Assembly: GCA_041304525.1 (NCBI GenBank)
Contig: JBFYNF010000045.1
Location: forward strand, 7,479-71,478
Length of the DNA stretch: 64,000 nt
Source of the DNA: Thermoplasmata archaeon
GTDB taxonomy: Archaea; Thermoplasmatota; Thermoplasmata; UBA10834
Direction of reading: 5' to 3'
Each line of letters begins with the position of its first letter. Within the stretch, counting starts at the first letter, position 1. Shown piece after piece: positions 13,642 to 32,258 of this stretch. The notes under the pieces were generated by a model that saw only the letters and a program-made list of their open reading frames with translations, was not told the DNA's origin and searched no databases. A program made the translations under genes and the position numbers.

Positions 13642-14037
13642 CTAGATCATCCTGATCGTGTCGGCGAGCTTCAGAAGCTCCCCCTTCGCGGCCGATGGAT
13701 CCACCCTGCTCGGGAGGACCGTGACGATCAGAGCCTTGCGGCCGGCGCCCACGACGAGCATCTTGGCGTCCTCACTCTCGACCAGGACACTCTGGGGCGT
13801 GCCGACTCTCAGCTCCGAGTTTGCGGTTGAGGCGGCGCCTATGAGCGTCGCGCACATGATCGCGAAGGTGTCCATTGACACGCCTTCCGGCAGGTCAGCA
13901 GCTATGACGAGGCCGTCCCTGCTTATGATGGCCGATGCGATGGACCCGCAGTTCTGTCTGAGGGCCCTCAAGGCCGGTTTGAGTTCCAATTCAATTCCCT
14001 CCGAGAGGTTCGACCCTGAACACGCAGTGCTTGTCAC
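13642..14037 (-). CDS. Roadblock/LC7 (MglB-like) domain protein
   Basis: ISRDGLVIAADLP ... AKMLVVGAGRKALIVTVLP matches the Roadblock/LC7 core. It overlaps the end of the upstream V4R gene, so the true start is probably a little downstream. Confidence 0.6.
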   Translation of the reverse strand: MTSTACSGSNLSEGIELELKPALRALRQNCGSIASAIISRDGLVIAADLPEGVSMDTFAIMCATLIGAASTANSELRVGTPQSVLVESEDAKMLVVGAGRKALIVTVLPSRVDPSAAKGELLKLADTIRMI

Positions 14038-14476
14038 CCTTGCTGATGCACTCTATCTCCTCGCAGTGGAGACGCCTGTGGCCCTTGGCCTCGTAGACCC
14101 TCTTGACGATACCCCTGAGCCTGTGGCAGGTCGGGACATCCGACTGAGTGGCCTCGATCGAGCCCTCCGCGACGGCGGTGGCCTCCTCGAAGACGATGTT
14201 GTCGACCCATCCCCTCGCCCTCAGCAGGTTGGCGCATATCTCGAAGTACTTCTCGGGCTCCTGCAGAGCGATCTTGGAGATCTCGTCCCCGAGTATCATG
14301 CCCTCCCGGAAGAAGAGGCCGTAGCACGCCTGAGACATCACGCCCTCGTAGAGCTTGCGTATCTCCTCGTACTCGGACTGGGAGAGCTTAACGAACTTCA
14401 TCGTAACCGCTCGTGGATTCGTATGGATGATATTTAAGGTTTGGCGCATGGCCGTCGAGCCAGGCAACCCATGCAC
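13991..14476 (-). CDS. V4R (4-vinyl reductase-like) domain protein
   Basis: C-terminal HCEEIECISKGDKHCVFRV fits the V4R E..C...Gd..C.F motif. Start at 14476 has GGAGGAAG 5 nt upstream; alternative ATG at 14401. Confidence 0.55.
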   Translation of the reverse strand: MHGLPGSTAMRQTLNIIHTNPRAVTMKFVKLSQSEYEEIRKLYEGVMSQACYGLFFREGMILGDEISKIALQEPEKYFEICANLLRARGWVDNIVFEEATAVAEGSIEATQSDVPTCHRLRGIVKRVYEAKGHRRLHCEEIECISKGDKHCVFRVEPLGGN

Positions 14477-17552: not shown

Positions 17553-17643
17553 TGTACCCCGTTGACAGGCTCCGGTCTGACCAAACGAACTGATGGACAC
17601 ATTCGTACATTGCATGAGGGCAGGGTCGTGACACGTCGTTCGA

Positions 17644-18204
17644 TTGGCGTTCTATTCGAGGATGACCCAACGAAAGCGTTATCTATCCGATTTTCATGTT
17701 ACCTTTTCGAACGTTTTAGAGGGGGCACCTTCGTTGGACAAACCGGACCCGGTCACGCTGGACAAGAGCGACAGGATCATATTGAAAATGCTTCAGGATG
17801 ACTGTAACATAAGCCTGAAGAAGATCGGCGAGAAGACGGGACTATCCTCGTCCACAGTCCACTACAGGGTCAACAGACTGATCGAGGAAGGGGTCATCAC
17901 CGGGTTCAAGGCATGTGTCAACCCCCTGAAGGTGGGGAAGGAGATACTGGCCATCTCGCTGATCACTGGCAGGTACGGTCCCGACTACTCCAAGAAGATA
18001 GGCGAGAAGATATCGAAGATCCCCGGCGTTTGGGCGACGTACTTCCTCCTGGGGAACATCGACTTCGCCATCCTGCTCAGGGCGTCTTCCAGAGAGGAAC
18101 TCAAGGACATAGTGGACGCATTCATCAGGATCGACGAGGTTGAGCGCAGCAACACATACCTCATACTGGACAGGATCAAGGAAGATATCACAGTGCAGCT
18201 GTAG
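17644..18204 (+). CDS. Lrp/AsnC-family transcriptional regulator
   Basis: HTH region DRIILKMLQDDCNISLKKIGEKTGLSSSTVHYRVNRLIEEGVI plus a C-terminal RAM-like domain. True start is probably downstream (TTG near 17735), giving about 156 aa. Confidence 0.8.
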   Translation: MAFYSRMTQRKRYLSDFHVTFSNVLEGAPSLDKPDPVTLDKSDRIILKMLQDDCNISLKKIGEKTGLSSSTVHYRVNRLIEEGVITGFKACVNPLKVGKEILAISLITGRYGPDYSKKIGEKISKIPGVWATYFLLGNIDFAILLRASSREELKDIVDAFIRIDEVERSNTYLILDRIKEDITVQL

Positions 18205-18217
18205 TCCAGCAGGCTGG

Positions 18218-19450
18218 CTACCTCTGTGTGCGCTTGGCGGCCGACACGGCTGACAGGTAGTCCTCGATGCGCTTGATACGCATAGACACCTTGGCCACGT
18301 CGTTCGTCAGGGTACCGATCCTGAGGACCAGTTCGTCAGGAACCCTTGGCTCGGGGATTATCGGTATGTCGGGCATTCTGATGTTCTCGGCAATCGACCG
18401 CACCGTGGCGACCTCCTCGACCAGTTCTTCGAACCTGGCGGGGAGGTCGTCCTCGCCCTCCTCTTCCTCCGGGACCCGCAGAAGCTCGATTGTGCTCTTG
18501 AGAGCGGTCACTTCGTCGGCCAAATTCGCGACTGCCGACTGGGTGCCCGAATCCTTCGCAGGTGCATGAGAGGATGCGATAGCCTTGTCTATCTTCCTGT
18601 CCGTTGTGGCCAGTATGACACCGAGCCCCTTGGCGATCTTCTTGTCCAGCTCGATCTTGAAATCGTGGAGTTCTCCCCTCAGATGTTCCTGGACGTCCTC
18701 CAACTTCTCGCCTTGGAGCTTCACGTCCCTGAGCATCGTGGTGAGGTCCGACATGAGGGAGGATGCACCTGACAACGCCTCGAGGTCGTCAGGGTCGAGC
18801 TTACCGCCCGCTGAAGCGATGTTGCAGTGCCTGAGACCGTCGACCATCGCAAGCATGTCCACGGTCGGGCCGCTCCTCTGGACCGCCTGCCTGATCGGCT
18901 CCAATCGGGCCATGACAGTCTCGGCCATCTTCACGGGGTTCTTCGTCCATTCGCCCATGTTGCTGAGCTCGCTCATGGCCTTCTCAAGCTGACGAGTGGC
19001 GTCAACCATGTCCGAACTCTCGATAGCGCGTATGTCCCTAATCGCGTCGCGCCGTCCCTTGGCCACGGCGTCATCCACAGAGAAACCCTCGTGAGGATAC
19101 ACGGTCGCCAGGTAGGACACGCCGGACATCACCTTGCCCATCACGTATTCCCAGTCTTGGCTAGTGACGGCTATCGTCGGCCTCTCGGACTTCTCGAACA
19201 GTAGGCAGAAACTGTCGTTGGGCATGTAGCATGCCTCGATGGAGTAGGGATGGTTCTTGTAGAACACTGGCGGGTGTTCAGGGCTCTCGCTCTGGACTGC
19301 GCCCATATAGGCGCCCATGTATGCCCTCGCGTAATTCGCGAGGTCCACGTCGGTGGGCCCTTTGTCCCTGCGCCCGCTCGGTTCTGCGCTCATATCCGCA
19401 CCAGGCATTGTGTCAACCTGGCTCTCACATGCCGTACTTGCGAAAGGCAA
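18218..19450 (-). CDS. coiled-coil hypothetical protein (410 aa), co-directional with the upstream wHTH gene
   Basis: Long ORF with good codon bias. Central and C-terminal heptad-like Glu/Lys/Leu-rich segments. No recognised enzyme motif. Confidence 0.5.
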   Translation of the reverse strand: MPFASTACESQVDTMPGADMSAEPSGRRDKGPTDVDLANYARAYMGAYMGAVQSESPEHPPVFYKNHPYSIEACYMPNDSFCLLFEKSERPTIAVTSQDWEYVMGKVMSGVSYLATVYPHEGFSVDDAVAKGRRDAIRDIRAIESSDMVDATRQLEKAMSELSNMGEWTKNPVKMAETVMARLEPIRQAVQRSGPTVDMLAMVDGLRHCNIASAGGKLDPDDLEALSGASSLMSDLTTMLRDVKLQGEKLEDVQEHLRGELHDFKIELDKKIAKGLGVILATTDRKIDKAIASSHAPAKDSGTQSAVANLADEVTALKSTIELLRVPEEEEGEDDLPARFEELVEEVATVRSIAENIRMPDIPIIPEPRVPDELVLRIGTLTNDVAKVSMRIKRIEDYLSAVSAAKRTQR

Positions 19451-19549
19451 ACTACAGCATGCCGCATCGGGTAGAACGGTGAAATATGTTTCCGGTCGAA
19501 TCTCGGATATGATTATCAGTCCGGACGAGCTCAGCGAGATGCTCTCTGT

Positions 19550-19930
19550 CTACACAGCAGCGGAGGCGATCCAGTCCTCGGACCACTTCACCTGGCCGGT
19601 CCTGAGTTCGAACTTCAGTCGCACCTTGCCGTCATCGAAGAATATCTGGGCGCGTCTGACCTGAGACAGATAGGTCCTTGTCCACTTGCCCTTCTGCGTG
19701 AGGACCTTACCCTCGCATTCCAGGAGTCCTTCTGAAAGGAGAGTGTTGACCCTCCTGTAACCCAGCGTGACTGGTATGTCCAGACGTTGGCACATGTCCT
19801 GGACGGTGCGCGGCCTGTCCCTCGAGTAGATGAGGATCTTGGCCGAGTACTCATCGACCAAGAGCTTGGACAGCTCGTACGCGTTCATCCCAGGTGGCCT
19901 CGACCTTGACAATTCTATGTCATCCGTCAT
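19550..19930 (-). CDS. small winged-HTH DNA-binding protein (candidate archaellum regulator, EarA-like by context)
   Basis: 126 aa; paralogous to the ORF at 20179-20547 (shared pattern DEY...IL.......R...ELA...DIP....YR....L...GL.E.EG..LT..GK). Sits divergently next to the archaellin genes. Confidence 0.55.
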   Translation of the reverse strand: MTDDIELSRSRPPGMNAYELSKLLVDEYSAKILIYSRDRPRTVQDMCQRLDIPVTLGYRRVNTLLSEGLLECEGKVLTQKGKWTRTYLSQVRRAQIFFDDGKVRLKFELRTGQVKWSEDWIASAAV

Positions 19931-20178
19931 AAACCATCTGGCTCAATTCCAAGCCGAGACAATCAGAGACGATACACCGCCCTATGAGACAGTTCTGACA
20001 GCAAGGAGTGAGGGACGTATCTGGCCGGCCTGAAAGGACGCCTGTGAGAAGTTCGTGTGATTCTCACCCGTTACAAACAAATCGTGAATTATATATATTG
20101 ACAAAATAGTACCCCTGGACAAGGGATGGGAATAAGCTCTAACTCCCCCCTAACGAGGGGATCCGAACGGCTACCGAA
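19931..20178. promoter_or_regulatory. divergent promoter region between the two wHTH genes (AT-rich, TTATATATAT box)
   Basis: Only markedly AT-rich stretch locally (aaatcgtgaattatatatattgacaaaatagt); lies between two divergently transcribed genes. Confidence 0.45.
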
Positions 20179-20547
20179 TTGGGCATCACAGCGGACGCTA
20201 AGAAGCTGAGTATCGCGCAGATACTCACAGACGAATACAACATGAACATCCTTGCAGCCACGAGCCACAAGGCCCGTAGCGCCAGGGAGCTTGCGTTCAT
20301 GTTCGATATACCACTCGCGAGCTGCTACAGGAAACTGAGGGAGCTCGGGACATCTGGTTTGATCGAGCAGGAAGGCAGCGAGCTCACATCGGATGGGAAG
20401 AGGTACAAGGTGTACCGCTCGATGATAGGGAGCGTGACGATGGTCTACGAGAAGGGCACTCTCCGCATGAAGGTGGACATGAACTTCAGGTCCGCCCCGC
20501 TCGAGATCATCCAGAATATGGCGTTGCCGAAGTCGAGAGAGTTCTGA
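20179..20547 (+). CDS. small winged-HTH DNA-binding protein, paralogue of 19550-19930
   Basis: TTG start in the track; 122 aa. Alignable over its whole length to the divergent neighbour. Followed by two hairpins (20566-20584; 20605-20630) and a T-tract. Confidence 0.55.
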   Translation: MGITADAKKLSIAQILTDEYNMNILAATSHKARSARELAFMFDIPLASCYRKLRELGTSGLIEQEGSELTSDGKRYKVYRSMIGSVTMVYEKGTLRMKVDMNFRSAPLEIIQNMALPKSREF

Positions 20548-20604
20548 TTCTGCGAGAAGATTGTGCCTGCGGAGCCTCCGCAGGAAACCTTTGCATAGTC
20601 ATGC

Positions 20605-20638
20605 CAGCATGTGCGGCCGGCGGCACATGCTGATTTTC
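20605..20638 (+). terminator. hairpin plus T-tract downstream of wHTH gene 2
   Basis: AGCATGTGC-GGCCGGCG-GCACATGCT (9-bp stem) followed by GATTTTCT. Confidence 0.4.
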
Positions 20639-20746
20639 TAAAAAGAGAATCACACCGGAACCGTCTTCTATTACACATGATAATCATTCATGGCTCTCAG
20701 GGGCGGAAGTAACGCTCCGCGCAGGGCAACGCTTGGACTATCCACA

Positions 20747-20769
20747 GGGCATGTAGACCTCCAAGGGAG
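20747..20769 (+). repeat. conserved 23-nt archaellin-upstream motif, copy 1 (ACTATCCACAGGGCATGTAGACC)
   Basis: Identical 23-mer recurs at 22208-22230 and, inverted, at 24218-24240; this copy is about 150 nt upstream of archaellin 1. Confidence 0.6.
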
Positions 20770-20919
20770 TGAGCTAGAACAACAACGAAGGCGGATAGGC
20801 CAGGCAGCGGATTCTGGACCCATGTCATAACGGCAGTGCTTCCTCACTACCGTCCTCCAATCCCATGGTCCCAGGACACGATGCCTAGCCTTCCCGCACA
20901 CACCACGGAGGTATGAGAA

Positions 20920-21534
20920 ATGAAGAAGATATCCAAACCCAGAAGGGTGCGGATGGGCGAAGAGGCCGAGATGGGGGTCGGGACATTGCTGATCTTCATC
21001 GCGATGATACTTGTCGCGGCGGTTGCCGCGGGGGTGCTCGTCCAGACCGCGTATGTACTACAGCAGCAGGCGGAGTCGACAGGAGATCAAGCACTGATGG
21101 AAGTGGCAACGGGATTCAGAATACTCGCGGCGTACGGGGTGACGAACCTATCGGTCCCTGAGGTGACCGACCTATACATCAAGATAACCTTGGCGGCAGG
21201 TAGCCCGGTCATCAACCTCGAGCACGTGATCATCGAGATCACGAACGGCGACAACGACGTTTCGCTGGCGTTCAATGTCACTGGCTCTGATGTGGATTAC
21301 TTCGGCGCGACACAGATCAGGGACACCTATCCCACGAACGACTGGACCACTGGCGAGCCGGGGATGACACAAGGCGACATCGCCCTCATCCACGTGAACC
21401 TTAGTGCGAACAGCCTCAGTCTGGCGTCGCAGCAGCAGGCGGACCTGTTGATCATCCCGAAGCACGGCATACCGACATACCTGTCGGTGGTTGCGCCGTC
21501 AGTGCTCTCGAACACCTACGAGAACCTCACCTAG
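20920..21534 (+). CDS. arlB: archaellin (FlaB/ArlB) 1
   Basis: Class III signal peptide ..EAEMG|[26 protein letters not shown] and archaellin core. RBS GGAGGT upstream. Confidence 0.85.
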   Translation: MKKISKPRRVRMGEEAEMGVGTLLIFIAMILVAAVAAGVLVQTAYVLQQQAESTGDQALMEVATGFRILAAYGVTNLSVPEVTDLYIKITLAAGSPVINLEHVIIEITNGDNDVSLAFNVTGSDVDYFGATQIRDTYPTNDWTTGEPGMTQGDIALIHVNLSANSLSLASQQQADLLIIPKHGIPTYLSVVAPSVLSNTYENLT

Positions 21535-21557
21535 AAGGCTTTGAAGGATGTGATTCC

Positions 21558-22019
21558 ATGAACGAGGACGGGGAAGCCGCGTTGGAAGTGATTTCGGTCG
21601 ATTCGAGGACCAACATCATCACGATGCGGTGGCTCTCGTTCCTCATGGACAAGATTGACCCTGAGGCATTGCCTGAGCTGTTCGTCTTCTACAAGAGGAT
21701 AGGGTGGCTGGGAACGCAGGCAGCCGCGTACATGTCTGCGTTGGCCGAAGGGGCGAAGCCCGAAGCGCCTTCTGAAGAGCAGGCGCTGATGGAAGAGGAC
21801 GTCGAAGACCACAACCTCCTGATAAGGAGAGGGACCGATTCCGGAAAGGAACCGATGGTGGAAGAGGTCGACTGGCGGCTGACGCCCGAGGACCACATCA
21901 AGTGCTGGATGTTCATGATGGAGATAGCCGGATTGGACGTCGATAGGAACACTTGGGTAGAGGTCGACGAGCGCATCAGCCGGTTCGAGAGAAGGCTCGC
22001 GGACTACTACAAGGTATGA
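21558..22019 (+). CDS. FlaD/E-family archaellum accessory protein (ArlE-like)
   Basis: Contains the Arch_fla_DE-type block TMRWLSFLMDKI. C-terminal HIKCWMFMMEIAGLDVDRNTWVEVDERISRFE is homologous to the C-terminus of the FlaC/D ORF at 25285-26442. Confidence 0.6.
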   Translation: MNEDGEAALEVISVDSRTNIITMRWLSFLMDKIDPEALPELFVFYKRIGWLGTQAAAYMSALAEGAKPEAPSEEQALMEEDVEDHNLLIRRGTDSGKEPMVEEVDWRLTPEDHIKCWMFMMEIAGLDVDRNTWVEVDERISRFERRLADYYKV

Positions 22020-22153
22020 TACTCTGTAGGTGCTCCGCCGCTGCGCTGAGAGAGGCAAACATACACACAGGGCATCCGAACGTACCTGGACCAGGCTTCG
22101 GCCAAACCCTTTACAATTCTGATTTTCTCCCGTGAAAATCACGGCTGGTCGCC

Positions 22154-22161
22154 TTATATAT
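22154..22161 (+). promoter_or_regulatory. candidate TATA box (TTATATAT) upstream of the giant archaellin gene
   Basis: AT-rich box about 45 nt upstream of motif copy 2 and about 205 nt upstream of the ATG; flanked by a duplicated ATATCAAC. Confidence 0.35.
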
Positions 22162-22202
22162 CAACGGCCCTGATTGAATATCAACAGCCTCCAACGCATC
22201 TC

Positions 22203-22230
22203 GAGGCACTATCCACAGGGCATGTAGACC
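22203..22230 (+). repeat. conserved archaellin-upstream motif, copy 2 (GAGGCACTATCCACAGGGCATGTAGACC)
   Basis: 28-nt version shared exactly with inverted copy 3; followed by the hairpin CTCGTCC-tca-GGACGAG and a GAGCTAG block also seen after copy 1. Confidence 0.6.
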
Positions 22231-22365
22231 GTAGGCTCTCGTCCTCAGGACGAGCTAGTAGGCAGGTCCGTAGGACCTGCCCATTCTGATAGTGTCCCAC
22301 GTTGGTGACCGCTGCAATCCGAACATAGCCACGTTCCATGCCCTCCAAACACGGAGAGGACTGGG

Positions 22366-24087
22366 ATGGGGCTTCGCAAGATCCGACAACTGAGGGCACA
22401 GGACGAAGAAGCCGATATCGGTATCGGTACTCTGATCATCTTCATCGCGATCGTACTAGTGGCGGCCATTGCGGCATCGCTCATACTGTACGCGGCCGCG
22501 CTGCTCCAGGAGCAGGCTGAGAGGACCGCGGACGACGCAGTATCGGAAGTGGCTGGTGGCCTGTCGGTCATCAACATAGCGGGTGACCGAAACCCGGACG
22601 GAGAAGCGTCGACGATAGTCTCGGGATACATGCCGGTGACTGACAACCATGCGCCCATCGGTGGAATACTATGGAATGTCACAGCCTCGACCGACGGGAC
22701 GTCAGTACTAGGGGTTGCCCTGAACTGGACCCCTGCGAACGATTTCGGGTCAGGGTTGTACGAGGAGATCGTGTACCGCACCTCCGTGTACGATCCCACC
22801 AACCCGGCCGTATTCAACGAACAGATCGCAAGGAACCGTCTCTTGACGCTCGACCAGCTGAACCCATCCATGGAGCTCGTCAGGCTCGGCGCGGGTTCCA
22901 GGTCTACCGTCCAATACACTGACTACACCGTTAGGGACGACAACTCGACCTCCTACGCCTACGCCATAGTGGGCGTGGACAGGGCGGGGAACGTCGTACT
23001 CTACACAGCCATCGACAGCTCCACCTCCACGGACGGCTCGTCGCATGACGAGGACCTCGTGCCGCCCTCCGGCGGCTCGATGACGAGCACTGCCAGGCCC
23101 GACGAATATTCAGTGGCGCTGTTCTGGGTGCCTGCGAGTGACGGCGCGAGCGGAATAGATGCTCAGAGGCTGTACAGGACCGAGGGGGCTGTGAGCTCTC
23201 TGCCTATAACCATCCAGGATGGAAGGACCGTGGTGACTGTCCCAGTCACGGTGACACTCTTGGAGGAGTTCAATTCCACCACATCGAGTCACGTCGACGC
23301 TCCCTCTGAGATCGGGGTGTACACGTACTTCATCGTGGTCCGAGACAACGCTGGGAACGAGGAGTTCATCGGCACCCTCAGTTACGACGCGCAGACGGTC
23401 GATTCGAACCCGCCCGAGAACGCAGGGTCGGTATCCGTCAGACAGGCCCCACAGTCAATGAACATATCCTGGACGGAGGCGACCGATGCGCAGACGGCTG
23501 TCTCTTCGTACCTGATCTTCAGGAGCACGAGTATCGGCACCCTTGACACGATTGAAGAGCTCATGACCATGGCGCCGTTGGCGGAGCTCGACTCGAGCGC
23601 CGGGAACTACTCCGACTACTCCGGTACGTCGGGCACGCTCTACTACTACGCAGTCGTGGCAGTCGATTCCGCCGGCAATTACGCTCAGTCCTCGATGCCA
23701 TCCAACACCATACAGATGATCGAGATCAAAGTCAAGACCGTCCCGGGAAGCAGGCCTGTGCAGTTCACGACCATGATGATCGAGATAACCGATGGCATGA
23801 CCGATGTCACCCTGAACTTCAACTCCGGTCAGTTGGGGGCCTCCGGCGCGACCGCCACCATGTTCTCCGCAGAGATCCTGAGGGATCCCGACAGCACCTT
23901 CGCCACCACATTCTCACTCTACGATGGTGCCCTAGTGAAGGTCTTCATCGACGCGGGCGAGATTGGATTGAGCCTGCATGCGGACTCGTCGTTCTCCCTC
24001 AAGTTCATACCGGCAATCGGGCAGCCGACCCTCGAGGAGTGCAGGATACCATACCTCGGTACGTATAGGTACGTAATACTCGTGTGA
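22366..24087 (+). CDS. arlB: giant archaellin (573 aa) with FN3/Ig-like central insert
   Basis: N-terminus ..EEADIG|IGTLIIFIAIVLVAAIAASLILYAA (class III). C-terminus IEIKVKTVPGSRPVQFTTMMIEITDG..VTLNFNSGQ matches the conserved archaellin C-domain. About 330 aa of FN3-like beta-repeats lie between. RBS GGAGAGGA. Confidence 0.75.
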   Translation: MGLRKIRQLRAQDEEADIGIGTLIIFIAIVLVAAIAASLILYAAALLQEQAERTADDAVSEVAGGLSVINIAGDRNPDGEASTIVSGYMPVTDNHAPIGGILWNVTASTDGTSVLGVALNWTPANDFGSGLYEEIVYRTSVYDPTNPAVFNEQIARNRLLTLDQLNPSMELVRLGAGSRSTVQYTDYTVRDDNSTSYAYAIVGVDRAGNVVLYTAIDSSTSTDGSSHDEDLVPPSGGSMTSTARPDEYSVALFWVPASDGASGIDAQRLYRTEGAVSSLPITIQDGRTVVTVPVTVTLLEEFNSTTSSHVDAPSEIGVYTYFIVVRDNAGNEEFIGTLSYDAQTVDSNPPENAGSVSVRQAPQSMNISWTEATDAQTAVSSYLIFRSTSIGTLDTIEELMTMAPLAELDSSAGNYSDYSGTSGTLYYYAVVAVDSAGNYAQSSMPSNTIQMIEIKVKTVPGSRPVQFTTMMIEITDGMTDVTLNFNSGQLGASGATATMFSAEILRDPDSTFATTFSLYDGALVKVFIDAGEIGLSLHADSSFSLKFIPAIGQPTLEECRIPYLGTYRYVILV

Positions 24088-24129
24088 TTCTTGGAAGCCA
24101 GTCGTCCCGGAATCAACGCGGAGCGAATC

Positions 24130-24158
24130 AGGGGTGAGAATCACCCCTAGTAATTTTT
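24130..24158 (+). terminator. hairpin plus T5 terminator after the giant archaellin
   Basis: AGGGGTGA-gaa-TCACCCCT followed by AGTAATTTTTCT. Confidence 0.55.
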
Positions 24159-24217
24159 CTGAATATTTGTATAATAATGTTTATGACTTGTCCTCTCGAT
24201 AGTAAGGGCTCGAGAGA

Positions 24218-24245
24218 GGTCTACATGCCCTGTGGATAGTGCCTC
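24218..24245 (-). repeat. conserved archaellin-upstream motif, copy 3 (inverted orientation)
   Basis: Reverse complement of 24218-24245 equals GAGGCACTATCCACAGGGCATGTAGACC. Adjacent hairpin CCTCTCGA..TCGAGAGAGG. Lies about 320 nt upstream of archaellin 3, downstream of an AT-rich box TTTGTATAATAATG (24166-24179). Confidence 0.6.
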
Positions 24246-24566
24246 TCAAGCCAACCTTGGGAGGCACATCTCTCTCACTCCCCGCTGTAGGGCACGGCGG
24301 TTGCCTCGGAGGTGAGGCGTGAGGACCTGGTAAACACGATTGACCTGGTTGCCGCCAGAATCGATTGATCGCCCCAGAGCAACGACGTGCCAAGTACGGG
24401 GTACAAAACCGTGTGTTTTGGACCTACATCGAGCAGAGGAAGCTCTCGATGTCCCGCCTGTGGCGGGGGAGCCAGGATCGGCTCTGACGATCCCCGCGCC
24501 GGCAGGTTCGCCGGTCGTCCCTCAGGTACGGAACCTGGGAAAGATGCGAGATTGGAGGAAGAAAGA

Positions 24567-25181
24567 ATGCAGAAACTAGCATGGAAGAAGAGGAAGATGG
24601 AAGAGGAAGGTGAGATGGGTGTTGGTACCCTTCTGATCTTCATCGCCATGATACTCGTAGCCGCTGTGGCCGCGGGTGTACTGGTTCAGACCGCATACAA
24701 GTTGCAGCAACAGGCTGAGAGCACCGGTAACGAGGCACTGCAGGACGTCGCCACGGGCTTCAAGGTCCTGACTGTCTGGGGAACCACGGGCACTGGTGGG
24801 AACATCACTGACGTGTACCTGAAGATCGCCCTTACGGCGGGCAGCCCCGGCATCAACCTTGCAGACGCCAAGATCGAGGTCATACAGACAATCGGCGGAA
24901 CCACTGCCTCTGAAGTGACCCTTGATTATGTGGACGGCGCGCCATCGGCATCGGCGTTCAACGCAACTGTGCTGAGGGACATGGCTCCGTCGACGACTGC
25001 CGCGATGATGACCTCTGGCGACATATTCCAGGTCCACCTTGACCTCGAGACGATGGTCATGGGTCTGGATGTCCAGGAGCAGCTCTCTGTGTTGCTGATG
25101 CCGAAGCACGGTGTCCCAACACTGTGTGAGATAACTGCGCCCTCGACGCTCGAGGCAAGCAGCGTGGTTGTCCTGAAGTAG
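24567..25181 (+). CDS. arlB: archaellin (FlaB/ArlB) 3
   Basis: [18 protein letters not shown]|[26 protein letters not shown]; near-identical signal and N-domain to archaellin 1. RBS GGAGGAAGAAAG. The track ORF starts further upstream (24387) without archaellin-like sequence. Confidence 0.85.
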
Positions 25182-25284
25182 AGACACAAGCCTCTGCGAA
25201 CCCGTCAGGGCATCACCAAACCCCTCCCTTTCTGGGAGGGGGATGGTGCCCTGACTAGAGAGCACGGGGAAATGGTGTAAGGAA

Positions 25285-26442
25285 ATGGCTGGCCTGTTCC
25301 GCAAGAAACCAGAGAAAGACGGTTCCTCCGCAAGAAGGAAGCTGAAAGGCTTCGAGGAGGGATTCGAAGAGGAGGCGGAAGAGGGGGCCTACGAGGAGAC
25401 TGAGACTAGCCAGAGAGCCGACAAACTCGTCAGCGCGGAAGATGAAGACTACTTGGGAGAGGACGAGGCCAGCGGCGCAGGTCTCGCAGGCGTCAAGGAG
25501 CTAAGCGAGCTCATGGGACGCCTGGAGGAGATCGAGGACAAGATGGGCCGGATCGACTCCGCTCTCACAACGGATCGGAACGAGAATGCCAAGGTCCGGG
25601 ACCGGCTCAATCAGATGGAACAGGACATCAGGAAGCTCCTTTCCGTCTACGAGGTCGTGTCCACCAAGTTCAACCCCTTCCTAGATGTCTCCGAGAAGAC
25701 CCCCCCACCTGTCCAGCCCCAACCGGCTGTGATGCCTGAGCCCGCTCCGTTCGCTCCAATCGAGCTGGACGGGGACATACCGGAGTTCCGGCCATATCAG
25801 GAAGGGGAAGTGGAGCCGCCCACCTTCAATGGCAAAGGGCCCAAGGCCAGCCGCGACGCCGCCCCGTGGGAGCCAGGGACGTCAACCGCTACCGTTGAGA
25901 CAGTGTTCTCCGGACCCAGGAGAGAGCCCCCACCGACACTCGACAAGACCTCGAAGGACGAGAAGTATGAAAGGCAGGTGAGAGCGTCCGCGAGGAGCAA
26001 ACACAACAAGAAGCCGCTCCTTGCGTACATCCCACACGACTACCTGACGCTGGTCCTCGTGATGCGCTGGATAGAGTTCCTGTTCGAGCGCGTGACCAGG
26101 GAAAGGATGTCGCTCGTGCTAGACTACTATGTCGATGTAGGATGGATCAGCGAGGACGTGAAATCAGAGATCATGTCCTACGCGCGCGGAGAAATGCAGG
26201 ATGTGACCAAGTACATGGGCCAAGAGGAGGTAAGGGAGGACGTGTTCCGCGACCTCCCGCCGCCGACAGCGGCCCCGTACAAGAAGGTCGAGGACTGGCG
26301 TCTGTCCGCAGACGACCACCTGAAGTCCCTGCTGTTCGTGCAGAAGATAGCCGGACTAGAGGTTGACAAGGACCGCCTTAACTCCCTCGAACAGAACATC
26401 TCCAAATTCAAGGAGAGTCTGGAGGGCTTTCATGGGGTTTAG
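25285..26442 (+). CDS. FlaC/FlaD-like archaellum accessory protein (N-terminal FlaC-type coiled coil, C-terminal FlaD/E domain)
   Basis: Coiled-coil block LEEIEDKMGRIDSALTTDRNENAKVRDRLNQMEQDIRKLLSVYEVVSTKFNPF is FlaC-like. C-terminus has LVLVMRWIEFLFERV and ..LLFVQKIAGLEVDKDRL homologous to the ArlE-like ORF. Confidence 0.7.
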   Translation: MAGLFRKKPEKDGSSARRKLKGFEEGFEEEAEEGAYEETETSQRADKLVSAEDEDYLGEDEASGAGLAGVKELSELMGRLEEIEDKMGRIDSALTTDRNENAKVRDRLNQMEQDIRKLLSVYEVVSTKFNPFLDVSEKTPPPVQPQPAVMPEPAPFAPIELDGDIPEFRPYQEGEVEPPTFNGKGPKASRDAAPWEPGTSTATVETVFSGPRREPPPTLDKTSKDEKYERQVRASARSKHNKKPLLAYIPHDYLTLVLVMRWIEFLFERVTRERMSLVLDYYVDVGWISEDVKSEIMSYARGEMQDVTKYMGQEEVREDVFRDLPPPTAAPYKKVEDWRLSADDHLKSLLFVQKIAGLEVDKDRLNSLEQNISKFKESLEGFHGV

Positions 26443-27622
26443 TGTCTCGGCTACAATGGCGATATTCTTCGCCGCCTTTCTAATCCTTTTTTCTATTCTT
26501 TATTCCTCTTTGAACGACGCCTTCGACTCTGTGTCGGAGTCGTTCGATGAGAAGTACGAATACATGAACGATCGACTCGATACGCAAGTGACGATACTCG
26601 ACGTCAGTTACCAGAGGGACTCAAACACCCTAGATATCAGGGTCCAGAACACTGGCAGCAAGGTCCTGGACATATCCAAGGTCGACCTGATTCTGGAAGG
26701 GGCCATCCCCACGTCGTTCAATAAGACCATCCAGGGGACGGACACAGAGGTTTGGCTCCCGACTGAGGTCCTCACGATCACTGTCGATGATCCCGATGTG
26801 TCATTCGAGACTGACCTCGACCCGCGCGCTTCGCTCACCAATGACGCCTCCCTGTCTGCCCCCTCGAATGTCTCCGTTGGAGAGAGCGTCTACGTCCTGG
26901 ATGGACAGGACATAGATGTCTTCACGCTCGGAGGTGTCTTCGATTTCACGATTACAGACTCATCAAACATGGTCTCGCCCTCTGACCTGAAAGTGTGGGG
27001 AGATTATCTCTACGTACTGGACGAGGGCACACACATCGATCGGTTCGGACTCGACGGGGCTTGGGTGGACCGGATAGTGAACGACACGACGAACTCGTCC
27101 ATCCTGACCTCATTCAGCGTCGATTCCGAGTACATATACATCATAGACAACAGGAGCCACATCGACCGGTATGGCCTGGCCACAGGAATATTCGTGGACT
27201 CGATTGTGCCGAACGGAGGCACGATGACATCGCCGCGAGACATCTTCGTCAGCTCGCACATCTTCGTGATCGACTACAGTTCGGGATACCATGTTGACGT
27301 GTACGAGCTGGACGGCAGCGGAGGGACGGAGTTAGTCGGCACGGTAGGGCTCTCGTCGCCAACGGATATCTGTGCCAGCGCGAACGGCCTGGACGACGTG
27401 TATGTGTATGTCGTCAACGGATCGAGCGAGGTGGCCGTGTTCAACGCAACGGGGTCGCCCGTGGACATAGTCGACAGCCTGCTGAGCGACTCTGTGATCG
27501 CCGTAGACGTCACAGGCAAGATGTATGTCTCTGACAATGTGAATGGACTCGTCGTGGAGAACCTGGGTACTAACATCAAAGTGGTGGTAGAGAATGGAAT
27601 CTCATGTGTCACAGTGCAATAG
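26432..27622 (+). CDS. FlaF (ArlF)-like protein fused to a C-terminal NHL-repeat beta-propeller
   Basis: N-terminus MGFSVSATMAIFFAAFLILFSILYSS and the following beta-sandwich match FlaF. From about residue 170, five or six repeats of the type YVLDGQDIDVF / YVLDEGTHIDRFGLDG / YIIDNRSHIDRYGL / FVIDYSSGYHVDVYELDG / YVVNGSSEVAVFNATG are NHL-like. Confidence 0.65.
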   Translation: MGFSVSATMAIFFAAFLILFSILYSSLNDAFDSVSESFDEKYEYMNDRLDTQVTILDVSYQRDSNTLDIRVQNTGSKVLDISKVDLILEGAIPTSFNKTIQGTDTEVWLPTEVLTITVDDPDVSFETDLDPRASLTNDASLSAPSNVSVGESVYVLDGQDIDVFTLGGVFDFTITDSSNMVSPSDLKVWGDYLYVLDEGTHIDRFGLDGAWVDRIVNDTTNSSILTSFSVDSEYIYIIDNRSHIDRYGLATGIFVDSIVPNGGTMTSPRDIFVSSHIFVIDYSSGYHVDVYELDGSGGTELVGTVGLSSPTDICASANGLDDVYVYVVNGSSEVAVFNATGSPVDIVDSLLSDSVIAVDVTGKMYVSDNVNGLVVENLGTNIKVVVENGISCVTVQ

Positions 27623-28076: not shown

Positions 28077-28787
28077 GTGAACCCTCCAATGGGGGAGACC
28101 TACAAGCTACAGATACCCAGAGACGACCTACATGACCAGCTAGGTCAGGGCCTCCCCGCGGGAACGATAACGTTGGTCGAGGGAGCGCATGGGACCGGAA
28201 AAAGCGCCCTCGTCCAGCGGATGATCTACGGATTCCTTTCGAACCAACACTCGGTAACGTGCATATCGACGGAGCTGACCGTCAGGGACTTCATCAACCA
28301 GATGTACTCGCTCGACTACCCCATATCCTCATGGCTCCTGAACGGGAAACTGAAGTTCGTGCCTGTGTACCCACTCGTGGGCAAGGCCAGGAAGAGGAGC
28401 GACTTCCTGGGCATGCTGATGGGCTCCGAGGAACTGTACAAGAGTGACATCATGATCATAGATACCTTCTCCAGCCTCGTCAGCAACAGCCTTCATGGGG
28501 AAGACAACAGCATAGGTGTGCTGTCATTCTTCAAGAGACTCACCGGCATGGGTAAGAGCATCGTGGTGACAGTGGACCCGACTGAACTGGACCCTAAGGC
28601 GCTCGCACCGTTCGAGTCGGACAGTCACGTGTATTTGAGCATAATCGTGTCACAGGTCGGCGGGATGATATCCAGGAGCATCATGGTGAAGCGGTTCGGT
28701 GGCACCGAGTACAGGGTGTCCCCGGTCGTGGGCTTCAGGATAGAGCCTAATGTGGGCATGGTCATCGAGATCACATCAGTCGTGTGA
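28077..28787 (+). CDS. arlH: FlaH (ArlH) KaiC/RecA-like ATPase
   Basis: Walker A LVEGAHGTGKSALV and RecA-like core. Conserved operon position before FlaI. Confidence 0.8.
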   Translation: MNPPMGETYKLQIPRDDLHDQLGQGLPAGTITLVEGAHGTGKSALVQRMIYGFLSNQHSVTCISTELTVRDFINQMYSLDYPISSWLLNGKLKFVPVYPLVGKARKRSDFLGMLMGSEELYKSDIMIIDTFSSLVSNSLHGEDNSIGVLSFFKRLTGMGKSIVVTVDPTELDPKALAPFESDSHVYLSIIVSQVGGMISRSIMVKRFGGTEYRVSPVVGFRIEPNVGMVIEITSVV

Positions 28788-28797
28788 GGTCACGGTC

Positions 28798-30429
28798 ATG
28801 GCGGCGAAGTTCAGCAAGGTCCTGGAACGGAATCCCCACCTGAACGTCTATCTTCAGAGATACGCTCAGGAGACAAACCAGTCGCCGAAGTTCATGGACA
28901 CACTGGGCAGGGATCTCGGGAAGGAGGCGACCGTGGATGTCATCTACCCTGTCGGCGACCCGATATTCATACACCTGCACGGCTCCAAGGACACCGGGCA
29001 CAAGTACGATGTCGTGCAGCCAATGATGGAGGACGAGCTTGGCAAAGCGTACGAGAAGGTCGTCAATAATGTCTTCTTGAAGTCAGGGAAGGAGAAGATC
29101 CACTCGACCGATGAGGAGTTCAACGAGGTCCTGGACAAGCTCCTGAACGAAATAGTCGAGGTCACAGAGAGACGCATCCCCTCGAAGGTCGTACAGCTGT
29201 TCAAACCCAACTCCAAGATCTACGTCACCCCAGATGACTACAGCATCCTGGAGTACTACGTCAAGAGGAACATCCTCCAGAACGGCATCCTCGAACCGAT
29301 ACTCAGGGACCCGTACATAGAGGACATCCACTGCGTCGGCGTCAGGGAGGTGAACCTGTACCACAAGATCCTGGGCATGGTGGAGACGAACATCAAGTTC
29401 TCGAACGTCTCAGACCTGGACAAGTACACCAAGGGGATGAGTGAAAGGATGGGTCGTCCCGCATCGATATCGAGACCGATCATCGACGGCGCCCTCCCGG
29501 ACGGTTCCCGTATCAACATCATCTACGCTGACGACGTGAGCGTCAACGGGCCGACATTCACCATCAGGAAGTTCTCAGCGGAGCCGCTGAGTGCCGCTCA
29601 ACTCTCTGGATGGAACACTGTCTCCGCGCAGGAGGCCGCATACCTCTGGCTCTGTCTCGAGAACGGCATGAGCGTGTTCGTCTGCGGTGAGACCGCCTCA
29701 GGTAAGACGACCCTGCTCAACGCCATATTCCCGTTCATAAGGTACGACCAGAAGATATTCTCGGCTGAGGACACCCTGGAGGTGCAGCCGCCTCACGCCG
29801 TCTGGCAACAATTATCCACAAGGGAGTTCGGCCCGGAGGAGAGCAAGGTGGACACCTTCGCCCTCCTGAGAGCTGGACTCAGGTCCAGACCCAACTACAT
29901 CATCGTGGGTGAGATCAGAGGGAAGGAAGGGAACGTCGCGTTCCAGGCGATGCAGACTGGCATCCCGGTCATGGCGACATTCCACGCCGCCTCCGTCAAG
30001 AGGATGATACAGAGGTTCACCGGCGCCCCGATCAGCGTGCCCATCACGAGCATGGACAACCTCAACGTGGCGGTCTTCCAGGCGGGCGTATACAGGAACG
30101 GGAAGTTGATCAGGAGGACCCTGTCCATCGAGGAGATACTGGGCTACAGCGAGTCGATGGGCGGAGTGATGACCAGGGCAGTCTTCGTATGGAACCCGGT
30201 GAGCGACCAGCACATATTCCGAGGGATGAACAACTCGTTCATACTGGAGGAAAGGATCGCCGTCAAGAGGGGGTACAAGGACAAGAGGGACATATACAAG
30301 GAACTCGCCCTCAGGACCAGGATCATCGAGAAGATGGTCGAGACGAACATGACCTCCTACAAGACAGTCAACGACATCCTCAAGGCATTTCAGAAGGAGG
30401 GAGTGGCCGGCCTGCCGTTCACGGTCTGA
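28798..30429 (+). CDS. arlI: FlaI (ArlI) archaellum assembly/motor ATPase, copy 1
   Basis: Secretion ATPase of the type II/IV family: Walker A VCGETASGKTT and Walker B/His box. N-terminus MAAKFSKVLERNPHL. Confidence 0.9.
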   Translation: MAAKFSKVLERNPHLNVYLQRYAQETNQSPKFMDTLGRDLGKEATVDVIYPVGDPIFIHLHGSKDTGHKYDVVQPMMEDELGKAYEKVVNNVFLKSGKEKIHSTDEEFNEVLDKLLNEIVEVTERRIPSKVVQLFKPNSKIYVTPDDYSILEYYVKRNILQNGILEPILRDPYIEDIHCVGVREVNLYHKILGMVETNIKFSNVSDLDKYTKGMSERMGRPASISRPIIDGALPDGSRINIIYADDVSVNGPTFTIRKFSAEPLSAAQLSGWNTVSAQEAAYLWLCLENGMSVFVCGETASGKTTLLNAIFPFIRYDQKIFSAEDTLEVQPPHAVWQQLSTREFGPEESKVDTFALLRAGLRSRPNYIIVGEIRGKEGNVAFQAMQTGIPVMATFHAASVKRMIQRFTGAPISVPITSMDNLNVAVFQAGVYRNGKLIRRTLSIEEILGYSESMGGVMTRAVFVWNPVSDQHIFRGMNNSFILEERIAVKRGYKDKRDIYKELALRTRIIEKMVETNMTSYKTVNDILKAFQKEGVAGLPFTV

Positions 30430-30443
30430 TCCGCGTTTGCTGG

Positions 30444-30509
30444 CACTGATAGTCAGGCCTGAGAATTGGGCGCCAACCCTTATTACTTCAGGTTCTGGAT
30501 TGGCCTTTG
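30444..30509 (+). promoter_or_regulatory. conserved promoter/start module A (shared with 34185-34252): TGATAGTCAGGC..GAGAATTG.GCGCCAA.CCTTAT, about 22 nt, then start codon and GCCACCG
   Basis: About 36 of 41 nt identical to the element before the surface-protein gene. Same spacing (22-24 nt) from the TTAT(T/G)A box to a start codon (TTG 30507), consistent with a BRE/TATA and leaderless start. Confidence 0.5.
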
Positions 30510-30608
30510 AGGCCACCGAGCGCAGGCTCCACAGGGCTACCTCCGCCCAAGGGTGCGGCATTGGCTCTGCTCAGGAGCCGCTTGAGGCGCCTCAGCGGAT
30601 GGGTGAGG

Positions 30609-32258
30609 ATGCCTGCAGACGAAGCTGGCCTGAAGAAGGCCATGAGGAAGAACCCGCACCTCCTTGAATACGTCCAGGAGTTCGTCAGCAGACACAGGTC
30701 GCCTCCAGAGTTCCACCCCGTGGTCGAACGCAAGATGGGGGACGAGCAGCAGGTCAACGTGATCTACCCGATAGGCGACCCGCTCTTTGTCCATGTGTTC
30801 TCGACAGATAGCATACCCATCAGCTACAAGTCCGTGCAGCCGCCGATGACGCCGGACCTGCAGCCCAAGTACAGAAAGGTCATCCAACAGGTCTACAACA
30901 AGGCCGTCTACATGGACCCGCACGAATCTGTGGAGGAGTTCGAGAAGAATCTCCTGCAGCTGATAGACGCCTCGACAAAGATCTCCGAGAGCAGCACGGA
31001 TGGCGACGGCAAACGCATCTTCGGCGACCTTTTCACGGAGCCAAAGATATTCGTCACCCAGCACGAGCAAGACCTGATCAAATACCATGCGAAGCTGGCG
31101 ATTGTGCTAGCAGGACCCCTTGAGCCACTCCTCAGAGACCCGTACATCGAAGATATCCACTGCATCGGACACGACAACGTCTCCATCGTCCACAAGATAT
31201 TCCAGGCGATGCCGACCGATGTGAAGTTCGAGTCGATGGAGGAACTCGACAACTATGTTCGGGCCTTGAGCGAGAGGATAGGCAGGCCGGCGTCGATGGC
31301 TAGGCCGATAGTGGACGGTACGCTTCCTGACGGGTCACGTATCAACCTCATCTACGCTGACGATGTGAGCGTCAAAGGCCCCAGCTTCTCCATCAGGAAG
31401 TTCGCCGAGGAACCTATAAGCATAACCCACCTGATCGAATGGAACACCATCAGCGCCCAGGAAGCCGCCTACATATGGCTCTGCCTGGAAGAAGGCATGA
31501 GCATATTCTTCTGCGGGGAGACGGCGTCGGGCAAGACGACGACCATGGGCGCGGCCCTCCCATTCATCAAGTACGACAGCAAGGTCTACACGGCCGAGGA
31601 CACCATCGAGATGCAGGTTCCACACAAGGTGTGGCAGAGGTTGGCAACGCGGGACTTCGGCCCTGAGGAGAGCAGGGTCGACACGTTCTCACTGCTCAAG
31701 GCCGCTCTAAGATCGAGACCGAACTTCATCATAGTCGGAGAGATTAGGGGCAAGGAAGGGAGCGTTGCGTTCCAGGCCATGCAAACGGGCCACCCCGTCC
31801 TGTCCACGTTCCACGCGGCATCGACGAGGAAGCTCATACAGAGATTCACCAGCGACCCCATCAATGTGCCCATCACGTTCATAGACAACCTGAATGTCGC
31901 GTTCTTCCAGGCAGGCGTGTACAGGGAAGGTAAATTCCTGAGACGGACGATGTTCATTGATGAGATCGTCGGGTACAACGAAGCGCTAGGCGGGATCATG
32001 ACCCGGACCATCTTCCTGTGGAACGCCGCGGACGACTCTCACATGTTCAAGGGGATGAACAACTCCTACATCCTCGAGGAGAAGATTGCGGTCAAGAGGG
32101 GCTACAGTGACAAGAGGAAGATATACGGTGACCTGGCCCTCAGGACCAAGATACTCGAAGAGATGGTCTCCAGGAAGATATTCAAGTACGAGAAGGTGGC
32201 GGAGATAACCAAGGAGTTCCAGAAGAAGGGGGTGAGCGGCCTACCGTTCCCCGTGTAG
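30609..32258 (+). CDS. arlI: FlaI (ArlI)-family ATPase, copy 2 (tandem paralogue)
   Basis: About 60-65% identical to copy 1 over the ATPase core (GRPASMARPIVDGTLPDGSRINLIYADDVSV...CGETASGKTT). ATG 30609 aligns with the copy-1 N-terminus. An in-frame TTG at 30507 adds 34 Arg/Pro-rich residues and sits at the conserved promoter-module spacing, so the true start may be 30507. Confidence 0.85.
   Translation: MPADEAGLKKAMRKNPHLLEYVQEFVSRHRSPPEFHPVVERKMGDEQQVNVIYPIGDPLFVHVFSTDSIPISYKSVQPPMTPDLQPKYRKVIQQVYNKAVYMDPHESVEEFEKNLLQLIDASTKISESSTDGDGKRIFGDLFTEPKIFVTQHEQDLIKYHAKLAIVLAGPLEPLLRDPYIEDIHCIGHDNVSIVHKIFQAMPTDVKFESMEELDNYVRALSERIGRPASMARPIVDGTLPDGSRINLIYADDVSVKGPSFSIRKFAEEPISITHLIEWNTISAQEAAYIWLCLEEGMSIFFCGETASGKTTTMGAALPFIKYDSKVYTAEDTIEMQVPHKVWQRLATRDFGPEESRVDTFSLLKAALRSRPNFIIVGEIRGKEGSVAFQAMQTGHPVLSTFHAASTRKLIQRFTSDPINVPITFIDNLNVAFFQAGVYREGKFLRRTMFIDEIVGYNEALGGIMTRTIFLWNAADDSHMFKGMNNSYILEEKIAVKRGYSDKRKIYGDLALRTKILEEMVSRKIFKYEKVAEITKEFQKKGVSGLPFPV

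Follow-up and report, generated by a model that had tools for sequence, protein, structure and literature searches.

Results

Two small divergent genes head an archaellum cluster

The archaellum (arl) gene cluster in a 64-kb stretch of DNA from a Thermoplasmata archaeon, which we refer to as the window (~58% GC), is headed by two small genes that we labeled A and B, and a long open reading frame (ORF) labeled C lies beside A (Table 1). Close homologs come from metagenome-assembled genomes (MAGs) annotated as Thermoplasmata or 'Methanobacteriota'. The original prediction for this locus, which was made from the sequence without database searches, described A and B as a divergent pair of paralogous winged helix-turn-helix (wHTH) genes next to the archaellin genes. 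Both ORFs are real, with GC content at third codon positions (GC3) of 0.77 for A and 0.80 for B, which resembles that of the adjacent genes and indicates that they are coding. The two genes are indeed divergent and stand at the head of the archaellum cluster, with B followed by arlB, an ArlD/E-like gene, a gene for a 573-amino-acid (aa) archaellin, a third arlB, arlCDE, arlF, arlG, arlH, two arlI genes and arlJ. The coiled-coil ORF C also lies where it had been placed, at a distance of 99 nucleotides (nt) from A. The A/B spacer had been regarded as the only strongly AT-rich region in the vicinity, but comparable dips in GC content occur in the window at 24000-24199 (0.475), 26400-26599 (0.46) and 17600-17799 (0.49), and the spacer is therefore not the sole AT-rich spot. 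Judging from homologs, A probably starts at M15 and C at an ATG within the called ORF; the homologs of A in two related loci (L001 and L008) begin at the equivalent of M15.

A and B belong to a CsmR-like family

A and B are homologous (30% identity over 90 aa, BLASTP E 2e-17). The original prediction held that they align end to end; about 100 residues do align, but the C-terminal tails differ. The winged-HTH assignment is borne out by an AlphaFold2 (AF2) model of B built from 36 sequences (predicted local distance difference test score, pLDDT, 85), which features four helices, a wing and three further beta strands (helices at residues 3-17, 19-27, 35-41 and 46-58, then five strands). All Pfam HTH matches of A and B are sub-threshold, including those to HTH_20 (24.7 and 16.1 bits, cut-off 27), and an NCBIfam search with either protein returned nothing meaningful. 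When the model of B was compared with the PDB using Foldseek, the top match was 2p4w_B (E 7.9e-05), which is Phr of P. furiosus, followed by PH1932 and then by ArsR/SmtB proteins. Searching the PDB with the single sequence of B yielded noise only, and a profile search yielded only a weak match to PH1932 (E 0.03). A match to a well-defined unrelated family, such as metal-responsive ArsR, had been named as an outcome that would count against the original prediction. No such match was found for A or B, with all ArsR and TrmB matches falling under curated cut-offs (HTH_metalloreg of NCBIfam, 13.3 bits against 55; TrmB, 21 against 25.6). B contains a single Cys, which lies in a conserved CYR(R/K) recognition helix, and has no CxC or His-rich metal site. 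We therefore rejected a metal-sensing ArsR identity on the basis of both the family scores and the missing metal-ligand residues in B. A search of 1.84 billion representatives with a B-family profile recovered 1585 proteins, mostly 105-150 aa long and matched over the whole core. HTH_20 is their commonest Pfam match (98 of 130 members), only one of the 130 touches an HTH_AsnC-type family of Pfam, and neither A nor B matches AsnC_trans_reg of Pfam. Public annotations of the relatives read ArsR or Lrp family.

The B-family profile also reaches haloarchaeal proteins (E 1e-16 to 3e-22). CsmR (HVO_1209) of Haloferax volcanii is a winged-helix protein of 13 kDa that regulates motility and cell shape (PLoS Genet 2026; PMC13286277), listed there as a 338-nt 'HTH domain protein' gene between HVO_1208 and archaellin A1. 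The same report assigns CsmR to the Lrp/AsnC class by structure, finds it mainly in Halobacteria, names 2P4W as its closest PDB neighbor and describes a beta-sandwich dimer interface (PMC13286277); the model of B fits with both of the latter points. Aligning the matches of haloarchaeal composition yielded 1698 haloarchaeal proteins, among them Haloferax proteins of 112 aa, and one of the B-family matches (P0139) is 81% identical to such a 112-aa protein (P0324). The genes for P0324 and a second protein, P0342, lie between cheY/DUF7500 and arlA1-arlA2, which are followed by a cirA-like (KaiC-like) gene and arlCDE-F-G-H-I. We took P0324 as the csmR ortholog based on gene order, gene length (338/339 nt) and the similarity of its flanks to the published deletion primers. 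B is 36% identical to P0324 over 84 aa (E 1e-18), A is 33% identical to it (E 2e-13), and alignment of the B and CsmR families with hhalign gave a probability of 99.86% (E 4.8e-31, 97 columns). In the Haloferax loci (L013-L015), the gene at the csmR position lies directly 5' of the archaellin genes and on the same strand, as B does in the window. Taken together, homology to HVO_1209 orthologs, a wHTH with a beta-strand module whose top match is 2P4W, and a position 5' of archaellin genes were all found, and we conclude that A and B are members of a CsmR-like family, with B the probable functional equivalent of CsmR by synteny.

B is the conserved anchor of the locus

We also mapped the window proteins onto 45 related loci. 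Close homologs of B (n = 36) share 58-96% identity, and in 37 of the 37 loci with at least ~0.7 kb of sequence 3' of B, archaellin or ArlCDE-like genes lie directly downstream, such that the expected conservation beside arl genes holds for B. The arl content in this position varies from a full arlB...arlI cluster to an ArlCDE-like gene only, which is sometimes followed by a Ras/Roc GTPase gene. This strict adjacency, together with homology to the characterized CsmR, upholds the general idea of an archaellum regulator. In most lineages, C is found upstream of B in divergent orientation (30-95% identity), with or without A in between, whereas A occurs between C and B in one clade only and is absent from several loci that keep C and B (L003, L038, L040, L042-L045 and L047-L050). 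Because A is missing from clades that retain its two neighbors, we regard B as the anchor, the divergent C and B genes as the older unit and A as an addition.

The history of A and B was assessed using a neighbor-joining (NJ) tree with 100 bootstraps over 112 columns, which is a simple method applied to short sequences. Support was 100 for the A clade and 100 for the B clade, but A and B were sisters in 0 of 100 bootstraps. A is 38-42% identical to Methanomassiliicoccales-type paralogs and 27-30% identical to B. We therefore rejected the idea that A is a recent duplicate of B, given that it is closer to those paralogs and never groups with B. The description of A and B as a duplicated pair is correct insofar as they are homologous, but they are deep paralogs, one of which is missing from several clades, and because their clades never pair in bootstraps, 'two old paralogs' is the better term. 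Archaellum linkage as a trait of the whole wHTH family was likewise rejected, for six more distant members sit in unrelated contexts, beside genes for PAS kinases, GvpD-like ATPases and TFB. Other members of the family were observed as tandem pairs and beside GvpD-like P-loop ATPase genes (L055:5001-6199, L056:5001-5853 and L011:4311-6354), and a tendency toward paired paralogs may be general in the family. In relatives that lack archaellins after B, an ArlC/D/E-like gene is followed by a gene for a Ras/Roc/Arf-type small GTPase (L003:8713-10854 and L007:1258-3612). The window contains a Roadblock/LC7 and V4R gene pair at 13642-14476, and the small GTPase and Roadblock/LC7 genes hint at an MglA/MglB-like polarity module linked to ArlCDE.

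Conserved boxes mark the core promoters of the cluster

A box of the form GAKAATCA(C), often inside a palindrome GTGA-N3-TCAC, recurs at the promoters of the locus. Exact GAKAATCA has six matches in 64 kb, five of which lie in the ~1.6 kb that make up the arl, A/B and C spacers. Across the related loci, exact GAGAATCAC has a 15-fold higher density in intergenic DNA than in coding DNA, and clades that have A and clades that lack it both carry it at equivalent promoter positions. A box equivalent to that of the A/B spacer lies upstream of B and is conserved in all clades. C had been predicted to be co-transcribed with A, but the gap between them contains its own conserved GATAATCA box and AT-rich stretch, and C is directly divergent from B where A is absent. 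A GATAATCAC box with an AT-rich stretch also lies upstream of C in L018, L022, L023, L045 and L047-L050. That C has an upstream region with its own box argues for separate, co-regulated transcription over simple co-transcription with A.

The operator of CsmR is the semi-palindromic TATCA(N4)TGATA (PMC13286277), and this published site is present at the arl and che promoters of the Haloferax loci. Sites with one mismatch to this operator number two in 64 kb, compared with a chance mean of 0.8, and one of the two falls in the arlB1 promoter region (Table 1); the remaining arl promoters have GAKAATCA(C) boxes in its stead. Of 17 related B-arlB1 spacers, 10 have a site with no more than one mismatch at the corresponding position, whereas the background density of such sites is 0.115 per kb. 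The core-promoter boxes are better candidate operators than the repeated 23-mer described below.

A repeated 23-mer lies within structured archaellin leaders

The 23-mer ACTATCCACAGGGCATGTAGACC has three exact copies in the window (20737 +, 22208 + and 24218 -), against 0 expected, at positions ~50-60 nt downstream of a conserved TATA box. In relatives with archaellins of only 49-66% identity, its 17-nt core is near-invariant at the three equivalent sites. The leader at 24165-24320, and also those at 20690-20800 and 22160-22300, can be folded into a three-way junction that consists of GAGAGAG, a hairpin formed by the 17-mer itself, a further hairpin and CTCTCTC. Covariation supports this fold: 97% of cells are paired, compared with 37-64% with slid partners, six pairs show compensatory changes and 0 of 500 shuffles match this result. 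At the third archaellin gene, the unit [GCCTC...GAGGC hairpin]-ACTA-[17-mer] runs in the opposite orientation, and other clades have different palindromes at the same leader position. An Rfam scan of 19400-25400 returned no match. The original prediction had proposed that A and B could bind the 23-mer as a heterodimer, which is unsupported; because the element lies downstream of TATA and within a leader with RNA covariation, this proposal is weakened, and the 23-mer appears to be the weaker candidate operator. The invariant loop and the occurrence of both orientations leave room for the 17-mer being recognized as double-stranded DNA, as it may be. As a separate observation, exact 23-mers in inverted orientation to each other lie on either side of the gene for the 573-aa archaellin (22208 + and 24218 -).

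Table 1. Genes and candidate regulatory features of the locus, in window coordinates
Feature	Position	Strand	Description
C	18218-19450	-	410-aa ORF with N-terminal alpha/beta domain and long coiled coil; likely start 19393 (391 aa)
Box GATAATCA	19510-19517	-	Between A and C; candidate promoter element of C, with AT-rich stretch alongside
A	19550-19930	-	126-aa paralog of CsmR-like family; probable real start M15 at 19888 (112 aa); one clade only
Divergent A/B spacer	19931-20178	.	248 nt, GC 0.465
Palindromic box GTGATTCTCAC	20057-20067	.	A/B spacer, ~20 nt from TATA-like AATTATATATATT (about 20088-20100)
B	20179-20547	+	122-aa winged-HTH protein of CsmR-like family, TTG start; conserved archaellum-linked regulator (probable)
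Terminator-like hairpin and T-run	20605-20632	+	After B; sets B apart from the arlB1 promoter
arlB1 promoter region	20645-20686	+	Distal box GAGAATCAC at 20645-20653; proximal box GATAATCA at 20679-20686
CsmR-operator-like TATTACACATGATA	20669-20682	+	One mismatch to TATCA(N4)TGATA; overlaps proximal GATAATCA box
23-mer copy 1, 17-mer core TCCACAGGGCATGTAGA	20737-20759	+	arlB1 leader; core at equivalent sites in ~20 related loci
arlB1	20920-21534	+	First archaellin gene of the cluster after B
Box GAAAATCAC	22134-22142	+	12 nt upstream of TATA (TTATATAT) of the 573-aa archaellin gene
23-mer copy 2	22208-22230	+	Leader of the 573-aa archaellin gene, ~50 nt 3' of TATA
Box GAGAATCAC in palindrome GGGGTGAGAATCACCCC	24136-24144	+	Upstream of arlB3 TATA
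23-mer copy 3, inverted	24218-24240	-	arlB3 leader; one hairpin of the three-way junction

Protein C and other genes of the locus

In the C family, an N-terminal domain of ~130 aa is conserved, GLGVILxTTDRKIDKA is an invariant motif of the long helical region, and the C-terminal sequence RxKRIEDYL is likewise conserved. C has no family match in Pfam or NCBIfam, a profile search of the PDB returned generic coiled coils only, and hhalign comparisons of C with HVO_1208 (DUF7500) and with ArlCDE were negative. A single-sequence AF2 model of C was poor (pLDDT 50). C is most likely a cytoplasmic coiled-coil protein within the putative regulon of B. Among the other neighbors of A, B and C, the gene at 17644-18204 encodes a true Lrp/AsnC protein, and another encodes a CxxCxxCC protein.

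Several features of the arl cluster itself were also observed. Archaellum clusters normally contain one ArlI-type ATPase gene; here, the interval from arlH to arlJ holds two such genes (T2SSE) in tandem (28750-30429 and 30507-32258), and their products share 56% identity over 544 aa. The 573-aa 'giant' archaellin (22366-24087) combines an archaellin N-terminus with Ig/FN3-like inserts and is kept at the same position in relatives, with 51-84% identity. A stand-alone ArlD/E-domain gene (21558-22019, 153 aa), which is conserved in relatives, lies between the first and the giant archaellin genes and is additional to the full arlCDE fusion at 25285-26442.

Discussion

A proposed role for B, and its alternatives

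The analysis shows that B is homologous to CsmR, what fold it is predicted to have, how the genes are arranged across relatives, and where the cis elements lie and are conserved. We favor, with some confidence, a reading in which B serves the archaellum locus specifically, as a transcription factor of the CsmR type that acts at the arl, C and A/B promoters. DNA binding at the sites named here, dimerization, the sign of regulation and any role of A and C go beyond these observations, and what we say on DNA binding is drawn from homology, position and conservation. B would be a small and probably dimeric protein, with an ArsR-like winged HTH and a short beta-sheet dimerization module. By analogy with Haloferax CsmR, it would bind short semi-palindromic sites of the TGAT/ATCA type, i.e., the GAKAATCA(C) boxes and a TATYR-N4-TGATA element. 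The archaellin genes, C and the divergent A/B promoter have sites of this kind at or just 5' of their TATA boxes, and through these sites B would set both the level of arl transcription and its own expression. A, as an anciently diverged member recruited in one clade, would most likely provide a second regulatory input, either by pairing with B or via DNA sites other than those of B. C would most likely serve as an archaellum-associated scaffold or as a partner of the regulator, and not as a DNA-binding protein.

Several points weigh against this reading of B. In the NJ tree, B and the haloarchaeal CsmR clade were joined in 0 of 100 bootstraps (CsmR clade 73, B clade 100); orthology is therefore unproven, and the link to the archaellum could have arisen twice. 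Family members that are 36-42% identical lie beside genes for PAS kinases, GvpD-like ATPases and TFB. Because B and CsmR do not form a clade and family members occur in these other contexts, we classify A and B as CsmR-like rather than as proven orthologs. At the level of DNA, the half-sites of the box are too close for the N4 spacing of CsmR, the CsmR-like element at arlB1 may overlap the TATA box itself, and the related loci are phylogenetically non-independent, so that the box enrichment figures overstate the support that they give. Deletion of csmR in Haloferax leads to mixed up- and down-regulation (PMC13286277), and the sign of control is therefore not transferable to B.

The original prediction likened A and B to EarA, and in its full form this alternative holds that both are EarA-type activators that bind the 23-mer 5' of the archaellin genes as a heterodimer, which we consider distinctly improbable. 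Both proteins are wHTHs of about EarA size at the head of the arl cluster. The 17-mer contains a dyad, TCnACA-N5-TGTnGA, that appears in both orientations and is near-invariant across diverged genomes, which suits a double-stranded DNA site for a dimer; moreover, the 17-mer is found only in the clade with A, and its reverse strand includes TACATG, which is one base off the EarA hexamer. EarA (MMP1718 in Methanococcus maripaludis, PF0340 in Pyrococcus furiosus) activates arl through TACATA repeats upstream of the B recognition element (BRE), and earA is reported always to lie beside a predicted methyltransferase gene (review PMC10117864). However, no methyltransferase gene lies between 14.5 and 34 kb of the window, and of the 15 TACATA matches in the window, none is in the arl, A/B or C spacers, with the nearest (21052) inside arlB1. 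The 23-mer differs from EarA sites in lying 3' of TATA and in a leader with RNA covariation, B stays beside arl in clades that have neither A nor the 17-mer, and no Methanococcus or Thermococcales protein is among the named members of the B family. Finally, the family of A and B is CsmR-like, and CsmR is reported to have no sequence or structural similarity to EarA (PMC13286277). A and B are thus set apart from EarA by gene context, site motif and published description rather than by direct sequence comparison. We conclude that the original interpretation was right in kind, which is well supported by synteny, in that these proteins appear to be archaellum regulators, but that the family is CsmR-like and the EarA assignment is unsupported. 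Two further observations touch on EarA. TACATA is over-represented in the window (15 matches compared with 6.2 expected; 0 of 100 shuffles reach 15), with 13 of the 15 on the + strand, and in the most distant B-type locus (L005:3167-5408) B is followed by an ArlD/E-like gene and then by an MTS/PrmA-type methyltransferase gene, two genes downstream, which faintly recalls the pairing of EarA with a methyltransferase. More improbable still is that A and/or B are ordinary ArsR/SmtB metal or stress sensors, or TrmB/Lrp metabolic regulators, that neighbor arl by chance. Their best Pfam matches are to HTH_20, which is ArsR-like, and to TrmB, many of the PDB fold matches are ArsR/SmtB proteins, and relatives carry ArsR or Lrp annotations, but each of these family matches falls under its curated cut-off, B has no recognizable metal site, and the real Lrp/AsnC protein is encoded by a separate gene. 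In addition, the linkage of B to arl is strict over 58-98% identity, which is not expected of a general sensor.

The remaining alternatives concern what the module controls and what the 23-mer does. It seems unlikely to us that the B-C module is part of a switch, polarity or cell-shape module based on ArlCDE, or mainly controls one, with archaellin control secondary. Many relatives have only an ArlCDE-like gene after B, often followed by a Ras/Roc GTPase gene, with no archaellin genes or arlF-J within 6-9 kb; C is the divergent partner of B in most lineages; and CsmR of Haloferax also governs the rod-to-plate shape transition (PMC13286277). However, a complete arl cluster follows B in the window and at least 12 related loci, where boxes precede each archaellin gene, and the genomes with ArlCDE only may carry archaellin genes elsewhere. 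A broader scheme, to which we assign somewhat less weight again, would make C, B and, where present, A a self-contained two-tier control module for the ArlCDE-based motor/switch in Thermoplasmata-like archaea: B would activate via GAKAATCA boxes 5' of TATA, A would act on the 17-mer as a roadblock repressor or as a binder of an RNA/DNA hairpin, and C would be a coiled-coil structural or anti-regulator part that couples assembly state to transcription. A more serious possibility, although still short of probable, is that the 17/23-mer is an RNA leader element involved in stability, translation or attenuation and unconnected to A or B. The element lies downstream of a conserved TTTAAG TATA box, its three-way junction shows compensatory changes and G-U wobbles on the sense strand, and other clades have a different palindrome at the equivalent leader position. 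In contrast, the same 17 nt, including the loop, are invariant in both orientations relative to the transcript, the hairpin would hold a C-A mismatch in the arlB1 and large-archaellin copies, and no Rfam family matches.

To our knowledge, EarA was the sole known euryarchaeal archaellum regulator before 2026. CsmR was then described as a haloarchaeal alternative (PMC13286277). The present locus points to CsmR-type proteins, and not EarA, at the head of archaellum clusters in another major lineage, most of which is uncultivated. The CsmR-like fold is also that of a large family in archaea, for which >1500 cluster representatives were found. As candidate operators, the locus offers both the GAKAATCA(C) boxes and the TATYR-N4-TGATA element; it further offers a strongly conserved structured archaellin leader and a coiled-coil protein that is genetically tied to arlCDE.

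Comparison with known regulators

Among known systems, the Lrp/AsnC class requires an AsnC-type HTH together with a RAM/AsnC_trans_reg ligand-binding domain, and the latter has no match in A or B. Phr (PF1790, PDB 2P4W) and PH1932 (PDB 1ULY/2CWE) are the PDB entries that best match the N-terminal wHTH of B by structure and by profile, but they are ~190-200 aa long, have another C-terminal domain, show only 17% identity (profile E 0.03) and are not linked to motility. ArnR/ArnR1 and the Arn network of Sulfolobus likewise exert archaellum-specific transcriptional control encoded beside the arl operon, but ArnR/ArnR1 are membrane-bound HTH proteins with HAMP-like domains in a crenarchaeal kinase/FHA network, unlike A or B in both architecture and homology. 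EarA is similar in being a small wHTH encoded next to arl genes in many Euryarchaeota and differs in its methyltransferase neighbor and its TACATA sites upstream of BRE, neither of which is seen at the A/B locus.

In contrast with CsmR of Haloferax, the homologs here are annotated as Thermoplasmata or 'Methanobacteriota' MAGs, B and CsmR form separate subfamilies in the NJ tree, the commonest conserved box is GAKAATCA(C) rather than TATCA(N4)TGATA, the paralog A and the coiled-coil protein C replace the DUF7500 neighbor, and neither a cirA-like KaiC gene nor che genes lie beside the A/B/C locus. What B shares with CsmR is a similar size (112-122 aa), a wHTH with a beta-strand C-terminal module, 2P4W as the top match and a position directly upstream of the archaellin genes.

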